The notes under the pieces are model-generated. The model ran no database searches. It was given only the letters and a program-made list of their open reading frames with translations, and was not told where the DNA came from. This document shows, piece by piece, positions 1 through 506 of a DNA stretch of 506 bases. Origin of the DNA: Escherichia coli (GTDB lineage: Bacteria > Pseudomonadota > Gammaproteobacteria > Enterobacterales > Enterobacteriaceae); NCBI RefSeq assembly GCF_003334255.1, contig NZ_QOWU01000230.1; one strand, given 5' to 3'. Positions within the stretch are counted from its first letter, which is position 1; every line of letters starts with the position of its first letter. Made by a program: the position numbers and the translations under genes.

Positions 1-5
1 CAAAT

Positions 6-34
6 GCCTGATGCGCTACGCTTATCAGGCCTAC
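6..34 (+). repeat. REP palindromic unit, Z2-type (copy 1)
   Basis: gcctgatgcgctacgcttatcaggcctac: 7-bp outer stem gcctgat/atcaggc (6-12 with 24-30), small internal mismatch, 2-bp inner stem with 3-nt loop, then the CTAC tail typical of REP. Matches the Z2 PU consensus as I recall it. Confidence 0.85.
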
Positions 35-51
35 AGATTCTTGCGCCATTC

Positions 52-85
52 GTAGGCCGGATAAGGCGTTCACGCCGCATCCGGC
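52..85 (-). repeat. REP palindromic unit, Y-type (copy 1), inverted relative to the Z2 unit
   Basis: The - strand reads gccggatgcggcgtgaacgccttatccggcctac: 7-bp outer stem gccggat/atccggc, 2x2 internal loop, 4-bp inner stem ggcg/cgcc with tgaa loop, CTAC tail. Matches the canonical Y PU / REP consensus as I recall it. Confidence 0.88.
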
Positions 86-98
86 AATGGTGACAAAT

Positions 99-127
99 GC
101 CTGATGCGCTACGCTTATCAGGCCTAC
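99..127 (+). repeat. REP palindromic unit, Z2-type (copy 2)
   Basis: Identical to 6-34, shifted by 93 bp. Confidence 0.85.
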
Positions 128-144
128 AGATTCTTGCGCCATTC

Positions 145-178
145 GTAGGCCGGATAAGGCGTTCACGCCGCATCCGGC
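145..178 (-). repeat. REP palindromic unit, Y-type (copy 2)
   Basis: Identical to 52-85, shifted by 93 bp. Confidence 0.88.
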
Positions 179-191
179 AATGGTGACAAAT

Positions 192-220
192 GCCTGATGC
201 GCTACGCTTATCAGGCCTAC
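192..220 (+). repeat. REP palindromic unit, Z2-type (copy 3)
   Basis: Identical to 6-34, shifted by 186 bp. Confidence 0.85.
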
Positions 221-237
221 AGATTCTTGCGCCATTC

Positions 238-271
238 GTAGGCCGGATAAGGCGTTCACGCCGCATCCGGC
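238..271 (-). repeat. REP palindromic unit, Y-type (copy 3)
   Basis: Identical to 52-85, shifted by 186 bp. Confidence 0.88.
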
Positions 272-284
272 AATGGTGACAAAT

Positions 285-313
285 GCCTGATGCGCTACGC
301 TTATCAGGCCTAC
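285..313 (+). repeat. REP palindromic unit, Z2-type (copy 4)
   Basis: Identical to 6-34, shifted by 279 bp. Confidence 0.85.
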
Positions 314-330
314 AGATTCTTGCGCCATTC

Positions 331-364
331 GTAGGCCGGATAAGGCGTTCACGCCGCATCCGGC
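331..364 (-). repeat. REP palindromic unit, Y-type (copy 4)
   Basis: Identical to 52-85, shifted by 279 bp. Confidence 0.88.
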
Positions 365-377
365 AATGGTGACAAAT

Positions 378-406
378 GCCTGATGCGCTACGCTTATCAG
401 GCCTAC
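378..406 (+). repeat. REP palindromic unit, Z2-type (copy 5)
   Basis: Identical to 6-34, shifted by 372 bp. Confidence 0.85.
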
Positions 407-423
407 AGATTCTTGCGCCATTC

Positions 424-457
424 GTAGGCCGGATAAGGCGTTCACGCCGCATCCGGC
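424..457 (-). repeat. REP palindromic unit, Y-type (copy 5)
   Basis: Identical to 52-85, shifted by 372 bp. Confidence 0.88.
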
Positions 458-470
458 AATGGTGACAAAT

Positions 471-499
471 GCCTGATGCGCTACGCTTATCAGGCCTAC
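471..499 (+). repeat. REP palindromic unit, Z2-type (copy 6; the window ends 7 nt after it, inside the linker)
   Basis: Identical to 6-34, shifted by 465 bp. The sequence stops at 506 within the tail-to-tail linker. Confidence 0.85.
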
Positions 500-506
500 A
501 GATTCT

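Follow-up and report, generated by a model that had tools for sequence, protein, structure and literature searches.

The analysed stretch of 506 nt, here called the window, is filled from position 1 to 506 by 5.44 tandem copies of a 93-bp unit, which were 100% identical in the periodicity analysis. Within each unit, a Z1 hairpin with CTAC is followed by a 17-nt linker, by GTAG with the Y palindrome and by a 13-nt linker. The window as a whole holds 6 Z1 and 5 Y, i.e. 11 palindromic units (Table 1). The conserved half-site CTTATCMGGCCTAC occurred 11 times in the 506 nt compared to 0 times in 200 shuffles, and the REP pair is thus far beyond chance. A preliminary description of this DNA had reported an inverted REP pair at positions 6–85. 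This pair is real, and its coordinates were right and frame exactly one tail-to-tail pair. It does not stand as an isolated doublet, though, being one of 5.44 identical 93-nt units. We also agree that no transposase gene lies within the window, and a scan of the 506 nt for promoter-like and intrinsic-terminator-like sites gave none.

All 5,426 of 5,426 complete E. coli genomes matched the window. When the best matches were opened in properly assembled genomes, they covered the phantom ORF yahH in the spacer that separates yahI from yahG. The unit of the window is identical to variant 'A' of this yahG-yahI array. Variant 'B' differs from 'A' at 5 positions, and variant 'C' (92 nt) begins the array. 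The linker at 35–51 is a site of differences between A and B units, with T41 and T48 in A and C in B. For the exact 80-nt pair, one single match was obtained among 100,044 species-representative genomes, again at the same locus, on a MAG contig that is 95–96% identical to the E. coli yah operon. Metagenome contigs were searched with an exact 117-nt pattern, and the two contigs found with two adjacent A units both carried them at the yahG-yahI locus. Matches in XL1-Blue, Rosetta2 and BL21(RP) were considered as second loci and judged to be assembly debris, with tRNA, RHS and IS fragments around the XL1-Blue and Rosetta2 pieces. The BL21(RP) match is annotated as phage tail tip protein. Given the identity with unit A, the matches between yahI and yahG and the occurrence at a single locus, the window is assigned by its sequence to the spacer between yahG and yahI in an Escherichia strain and can now be placed at a single E. 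coli locus. The yah operon is transcribed from the minus strand of the window; the array lies inside the operon and is transcribed.

Table 1. Features of the 506-nt window (positions counted from its first letter; a slash within a motif marks the cut).
Feature	Position	Strand	Basis or remark
Tandem array, Y+Z1 multi-copy atypical BIME, yahG-yahI ('yahH') spacer	1–506		periodicity; unit identical to unit 'A'
'iREP type I' consensus match TGCC/TGAT, predicted cut 8/9, every 93 nt	5–12	+	consensus of Ton-Hoang 2012; cleavage inferred
Z1 palindromic unit, hairpin 6–30 (GCCTGATGCGCTACGCTTATCAGGC) and CTAC 31–34	6–34	-	sequence, fold, 29-nt length
Further Z1 copies	99–127, 192–220, 285–313, 378–406, 471–499	-	sequence
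'iREP type II' consensus match GGCC/TACA, predicted cut 31/32 inside CTAC	28–35	+	consensus of Ton-Hoang 2012; inferred
Tail-to-tail linker AGATTCTTGCGCCATTC, 17 nt, locus-specific	35–51		read from sequence
Type II site GGCC/TACG at Y iREP, predicted cut 55/54	51–58	-	consensus of Ton-Hoang 2012; inferred
Y palindromic unit, GTAG 52–55 and 30-nt imperfect palindrome GCCGGATAAGGCGTTCACGCCGCATCCGGC 56–85	52–85	+	sequence, fold
Further Y copies	145–178, 238–271, 331–364, 424–457	+	sequence
Rfam naRNA4 (RF02564) match, Y-linker-Z1 head-to-head doublet	55–124	+	78 bits vs gathering 59.5
IS1397 insertion site, Y apical loop	68–73		equivalents in other strains: GTTC 68–71, TCAC 70–73
Head-to-head short linker AATGGTGACAAAT, 13 nt	86–98		without IHF consensus, not the long L motif of BIME-1

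Both palindromes have the features of REPs. GTAG stands directly 5' of an imperfect GC-rich palindrome, on the plus strand for Y and on the minus strand for Z1. The AA mismatch or bulge is present in both, and the lengths are those of REPs with 34 + 1 nt for Y and 29 nt for Z1. They are also highly repeated and extragenic, as all 5,426 E. coli genomes had matches, with a median of no fewer than 20 sites per genome, and the locus itself is an intergenic spacer. Z1 reads as a REP on the minus strand (GTAG plus 25 nt, 29 nt in total), while its plus strand is the iREP; in the window, Z1 and Y are inverted and arranged tail-to-tail. As single strand, Y folds with -12.1 kcal/mol (z -4.5) into a 7-bp stem, a 2x2 AA/GC internal loop, a 4-bp stem and a 4-nt loop. 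The corresponding fold of Z1 has -8.5 kcal/mol (z -3.9), with stems of 7 and 3 bp that are separated by an AA bulge, and a loop of 3 nt. The head-to-head doublet at 52–127 can form a single long hairpin with -22.4 kcal/mol (z -5.3).

The short palindrome had been labelled Z2 in the preliminary description. The published REP lengths are 35 nt for y, 29 nt for z1 and 37 nt for z2 (Corneloup 2021, PMC8266576). The Z2 that flanks rayT was printed in the long form GTAGGcatGATAAGaCGcgcCAgCGtCGCATCaGGCA (Nunvar 2010, PMC2817692), REP325 was given as Y-l-Z2 (Qian 2015) and the Rfam naRNA4 consensus for REP325 also contains the long Z form. With 29 nt including GTAG, the short unit is Z1 and the earlier label was wrong, as z2 has 37 nt. 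Its shorter tip aside, the short palindrome matches the Y type at 27 of its 29 positions. The naming in the literature is not fully consistent, since the same REPtron unit was called 'z1' by Messing 2012.

According to Ton-Hoang 2012, BIME-1 is a single-copy element in which Y and Z1 are joined by the long L linker that binds IHF, BIME-2 combines Y and Z2 with short linkers in tandem, and 'atypical' BIMEs mix motifs of both types and occur in multiple copies. BIME-2, the label given earlier, was ruled out by the Z unit of 29 nt instead of the 37-nt Z2. The variable tandem copies (5.44 in the window, with variation between strains) and the short linkers of 13 and 17 nt are nevertheless those of BIME-2. 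BIME-1 was ruled out as well, as an L/IHF linker is missing, the linkers have 13 and 17 nt and the units are present in many copies. An IHF consensus was not found in the window, even with one mismatch. With Y and Z1, short linkers, no IHF consensus and many copies, the array is therefore an atypical BIME, that is, BIME-1 units (Y+Z1) in BIME-2 architecture (short linkers, tandem).

The span from yahI to yahG was measured with a two-flank query in two genome samples. It ranged from 643 to 1,064 bp in these two flank samples, and the common sizes were approx. 93 bp apart. In H1827/12, the array of 546 bp corresponds to 5.9 units, and the span would be about 1,158 bp. Between strains, the array size is about 0 to 6 whole units. 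Polymorphism between strains at REP sites had been named earlier as a point to look for, and it was found at this site in the form of whole 93-bp units. The units are arranged as C-A-A' in K-12 AG100, C-B-A-A' in K-12 MG1655, C-B-A-A-A' in N921, C-B-A-B-A-A' in H1827/12 and D-A-A-A-A'' in contig OATN01000477. Unit A is the unit that expands in several backgrounds, and we infer that the perfect run of A units reflects the recent amplification of a single unit. Whole units could be added or removed by cut-and-rejoin at equivalent sites, or by slippage or unequal recombination between the 93-bp repeats.

The doublet had also been described as a target of insertion sequences such as IS1397, together with the proposal to compare strains for insertions in the PU loops. 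The IS1397 sequence (1,432 bp) was taken from strain 28Eco12 via the coordinates in a published IS table (PMC6963479); IS150 as blastn query with distant sensitivity gave no usable similarity for locating IS1397. A chimeric query was composed of the yahI flank, IS1397 in both orientations and the yahG flank. The 1,432-bp IS1397 was located between yahI and yahG in five of the 5,426 complete E. coli genomes. In all five, it lies in the apical loop of Y in a Z1-CTAC-linker-GTAG-Y pair and is accompanied by a 4-bp target duplication, namely TCAC in YZ3E2001, 30224_1#355 and 1162C, and GTTC in 2015C-4136CT1 and AF4. All five copies have the same orientation. As the duplications and flanks differ, the five copies go back to two or more separate insertion events, and probably to four. 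In the Z1 unit of the pair, IS1397 was not observed among the five insertion-bearing genomes. Of the 5,426 complete genomes, 1,708 contain IS1397 in full length. In 28Eco12, two Z2-like palindromes carry it in their loops, with the duplications TCAA and TGGC, and in CFT073 it lies in a Y loop. The Y loop of the doublet is a natural and recurrent IS1397 insertion site. The claim was thus borne out, and the proposed comparison across strains was positive with five genomes.

The same doublet had been described as a possible substrate of REP-associated transposases. TnpAREP (RayT) acts on single-stranded DNA only and, in vitro, binds the REP via the 5' GTAG, the unpaired AA and stem contacts to T11 and G32 (Ton-Hoang 2012, Messing 2012, Corneloup 2021, PMC8266576). 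It cuts at C/T in vitro on either side of the neighbouring iREP (type I TGCC/TGAT, type II GGCC/TAC) or in linkers, cleaves the iREPs of y, z1 and z2, and can join strands. In Y, these determinants are found as GTAG at 52–55, T11 at 62, A12/A13 at 63–64 in the AA/GC mismatch and G32 at 83. The determinants and the CC/T sites are present in every unit of the window. A type I site is missing from the Y iREP, in agreement with the publication, and the linker at 35–51 contains one CT dinucleotide at 40–41. Because the REPs are inverted, each strand has one binding REP flanked by cleavable iREPs. TnpAREP would bind the REP on single-stranded DNA and then cut at C/T in the adjoining inverted REP or linker. 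With equivalent cut sites exactly 93 nt apart, such cutting and joining would add or remove whole units. The doublet is therefore, as predicted from its motifs, a plausible RAYT substrate. Of the earlier claim, the presence of all in vitro determinants and the unit polymorphism of the locus stand, and the use of the doublet by RAYT is a possibility.

Among the 5,426 complete E. coli genomes, 3,575 (66%) contain rayT, including K-12 and N921, and one third does not. This agrees with the published prevalence of two thirds of E. coli. N921 combines rayT with three consecutive A-type units (two full A and a truncated A'). In K-12, rayT is located ~92 kb from the array and is flanked by BIMEs with Y and long Z; at this distance, the array is not part of the REPtron. 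Array length and rayT were determined together in 54 chromosomes with a combined query, which took a second match within a record as the sign of rayT. Arrays of at least 4 units were present in 18 of 35 chromosomes with rayT vs 0 of 19 without (Fisher p = 5e-5, uncorrected for phylogeny). This difference is suggestive only and runs along the phylogroups (A and E vs B1). Members of A and E carry rayT, which was lost in B1, and the link of array length with rayT is not independent evidence. In the sample of 54 chromosomes, genomes without rayT had 0, 1, 2 or 3 units. The unit number therefore either varies without a resident rayT, or the differences predate the loss of rayT.

A role of RAYT may not be required at all. 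The doublet would then be a structural or regulatory REP (mRNA stabiliser/attenuator, gyrase or Pol I site) whose copy number is changed by slippage or unequal recombination, and we give this explanation slightly less than an even chance. Direct repeats of 93 bp without any mismatch offer an ideal substrate for slippage and unequal crossing-over, and the mosaic units, in which B-type positions are combined with A-type ones, suggest that units recombine with or convert one another. The 0 to 3 units still found in the sampled genomes without rayT are consistent with it, as is the fact that the array is part of the yah operon, with yahG and yahI on either side, and is transcribed. REP325, the model array, was shown to be a terminator and stabiliser (2026 preprint), and no circular BIME junctions were detected at the REP clusters of K-12 (mobilome preprint). 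On the other hand, arrays of at least 4 units occurred only in the rayT-positive part of the sample, and every unit keeps all in vitro determinants and cut sites, although neither observation is decisive. Slippage or unequal recombination accounts for the unit variation equally well as RayT, and the data do not decide which of these processes is behind the unit change in vivo. Since the tandem units are identical, duplication junctions are unmappable to CT sites. We know of no demonstration in vivo that TnpAREP acts on BIMEs.

Other alternatives concern the window itself rather than the process. A run of 400 nt of pure A units was found in 0 of the 5,426 complete genomes, with 98.3% for the best match, and the full 506 nt were absent from all of them. 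Assembly may therefore have produced the perfect copy number of the window. Its homogeneous run of 5.4 or more units would then be a stand-alone short-read repeat contig generated by assembler looping, in which the pair is real but copy number and identity are artefacts; this is possible, though less likely than not. The window is all repeat without unique flank, and both ends lie inside units. The longest A runs found were three full A with a variant final unit (OATN01000477) and two full A with the truncated A' (N921). Isolated array pieces are contained in the assemblies of XL1-Blue, Rosetta2-DE3 and BL21(RP). Both pieces that were opened (XL1-Blue and Rosetta2-DE3) stood among other repeat fragments, and the one of XL1-Blue reads B-A-B-A-A, unlike the K-12 order C-B-A-A'. 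Against an artefact, arrays of the length of the window do exist (5.9 units and 546 bp in H1827/12), unit A is expanding in independent lineages and 506 nt does not equal a simple loop length of 93 plus k-1. The doubt concerns the copy number and its perfection; the pair itself is not in doubt. It is improbable that the at least 5.4 perfect A units are a true, very recent RayT amplification of the rolling-circle-like kind proposed by Ton-Hoang et al. If true, the window would be a natural snapshot of a reaction never observed in vivo, with a run longer than any in the 5,426 genomes. We consider it very improbable that the region is a gene, either for a YahH protein on the minus strand or for a naRNA4-type small RNA, with incidental palindromes. 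Two frames on the minus strand are open through the whole window, PGAP calls 'YahH' or a hypothetical protein over the array and ribosome footprints were reported on yahH in EHEC (Neuhaus 2016). However, a stop-free 93-nt repeat gives open frames automatically: the unit has 31 codons without stops, which leads to the two open minus-strand frames and hence to the annotations. Moreover, the length of the ORF tracks the unit number of about 0 to 6 between strains, the yahH ORF is missing from many strains and yahH was dropped from curated annotation as a REP artefact. The small-RNA variant draws on the Rfam naRNA4 score of 78 bits, which is above the gathering score. Yet all five naRNA4 matches are on the plus strand in 93-nt steps, whereas the operon is transcribed from the minus strand, which scored 53.9 bits and is below the threshold. 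naRNA4 proper comes from REP325, and its role in the nucleoid is now being questioned, with a local function as terminator/stabiliser put forward instead (2026 preprint). The identity with naRNA4 (REP325) was ruled out by the locus, which is yahG-yahI and not yjdM-yjdN, and by the sub-threshold score of the transcribed strand. The naRNA4 match is a resemblance at the level of the REP family.

Taken together, the best explanation, which we regard as very probable, is a Z1-Y doublet of the atypical yahG-yahI BIME that serves as IS1397 target and whose units are changed by RayT or by slippage/recombination. Compared with the interpretation in the preliminary description, the targeting by IS1397 is now directly supported, and the role of RAYT is a possible one. 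Going by the REP literature, the most likely role of the transcribed array would be that of an intercistronic stabiliser and attenuator of the yahDEFG-IJ operon mRNA. REPs, BIMEs, RayT and the targeting by IS1397 are already known features of E. coli, and the yahH array was previously described. The yahG-yahI array is a convenient natural reporter for an effect of RayT on BIME copy number in vivo, as it is framed by two conserved genes, varies in steps of 93 bp and, among the sampled genomes, reached the larger sizes only in rayT-positive ones. For annotators, the open frames across the array should not be called a gene, and assemblers can produce stand-alone contigs from it.

Among the known systems, REP325/naRNA4 (yjdM-yjdN, RF02564) shares the head-to-head Y-linker-Z doublet, the tandem arrangement and the position inside an operon. 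It differs in its locus and linkers, the Z of the array described here lacks 7 nt at the tip (Z1 vs Z2), and the best Rfam match is opposite to the transcribed strand. In relation to the REPtron (rayT = yafM), the REPs of the window have the same 5' GTAG, AA mismatch, T11, G32 and CC/T sites as the substrates that RayT binds and cuts in vitro. The REPtron BIMEs flank rayT with Y and long Z, whereas the array here is ~92 kb off in K-12. The array resembles BIME-2 and atypical BIMEs in its alternating inverted units, short linkers, tandem arrangement, strain-variable copy number and near-identical units per locus (Ton-Hoang 2012). Unlike BIME-2 with its 37-nt Z2, it has the 29-nt Z1 and, in contrast to BIME-1, neither a long L linker nor an IHF site. 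As in the REPINs of the Pseudomonas REPIN-RAYT system (Bertels and Rainey), the inverted REPs can fold as a single long hairpin. REPINs are mostly dispersed single doublets which are thought to be mobile as a unit, while a tandem local amplification with the exact sequence at one locus only is found here. The insertions of IS1397 correspond in every respect to the PU-loop targeting of IS1397/ISKpn1 (IS3 family), with insertion in the apical loop and a 4-bp duplication, and the yahG-yahI doublet is one more natural target.

The window is built of 93-nt A units repeated 5.44 times from end to end, all of them perfectly identical, and unique flank is absent. A pure A run of even 400 nt was found in none of the 5,426 complete E. 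coli genomes, the best match reaching 98.3% identity. The longest A runs found outside the window were those of contig OATN01000477, where a variant unit closes a run of three full A units, and of N921, with two full A units and a truncated A' variant.

The length of the yahG-yahI (yahH) array varied among 54 sampled E. coli chromosomes. Arrays of at least four units were present in 18 of the 35 chromosomes with a second match (the TnpAREP gene rayT) versus 0 of the 19 without it, and most B1-type strains (O26, O111, O104:H4) carried a single doublet. This pattern of array length and rayT goes with phylogroups. Within one laboratory lineage, the K-12 substrains AG100 (C-A-A', three units) and MG1655 (C-B-A-A', four units) differ by 93 bp in array length. 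Either the AG100 array has truly contracted or its assembly has collapsed. Isolated array pieces were also matched in three assemblies of laboratory strains designated as complete, namely, XL1-Blue, Rosetta2-DE3 and BL21(RP). The XL1-Blue piece has the unit order B-A-B-A-A, which is absent from K-12. The pieces in these three assemblies look like appended repeat contigs.

Positions of array pieces, insertion sequences and window features (L numbers denote opened sequence excerpts)
Feature	Record	Position	Surroundings or annotation
Array piece	XL1-Blue NZ_CP081007.1	4001-4471 of L001	tRNA, RHS and IS fragments
Array piece	Rosetta2-DE3 NZ_CP083274.1	2501-2662 of L008	tRNA, RHS and IS fragments
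Array match H4	BL21(RP) NZ_CP084683.1		phage tail tip protein (annotation from the match listing)
Array	AG100 NZ_LN832404.1	339,150-339,460 (L020)	
Array	MG1655	6757-7117 of L003	
IS1397 copy	28Eco12	2001-3432 of L012	
IS1397 copy	28Eco12	2001-3432 of L013	
naRNA4 match	window	55-124	
29-aa ORF, + strand	window	4-93, 97-186 and so on	

Frames 0 and 1 of the minus strand are both open over the entire window because the unit comprises 31 codons without stops, and a 29-aa ORF recurs on the plus strand. The array is annotated by PGAP as YahH or as a hypothetical protein, the ORF length of which tracks the unit number. Ribosome footprints on yahH have been described in EHEC (Neuhaus 2016, PMC4765031).

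The same array, with two units, was seen on the MAG contig CAJYVI010000043.1 (L019), labelled uncultured Pseudocitrobacter sp., at 95-96% identity to the E. coli yahG-yahJ region; either an Escherichia contig lies inside this bin or the taxonomic label is doubtful. In the E. coli genome searches, approx. 120 plasmid records showed ~96% identity to the yahI portion of the flank; their annotation is carbamate kinase family protein, so large plasmids carry a yahI paralogue.

The Rfam model naRNA4 (RF02564) matched the window above its gathering threshold at 55-124 and at four further copies. The matching locus is not REP325, and the operon is transcribed from the other strand than the one matched; Y-linker-Z doublets in general appear to be what the model recognises. 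The Z1/Z2 nomenclature is inconsistent between papers: in the K-12 REPtron (rayT with its flanking BIMEs), the long Z unit is 'z1' in Messing 2012 and z2 in Ton-Hoang 2012 and Nunvar 2010. Corneloup 2021 gives 29 nt for z1 and 37 nt for z2. In 28Eco12, each of the two IS1397 copies occupies the apical loop of a long Z-type palindrome and has a 4-bp duplication, TCAA in one case and TGGC in the other. The IS1397 insertions at the yahH locus share one common orientation (5/5), and the 28Eco12 copies differ from them in orientation relative to the GTAG side.
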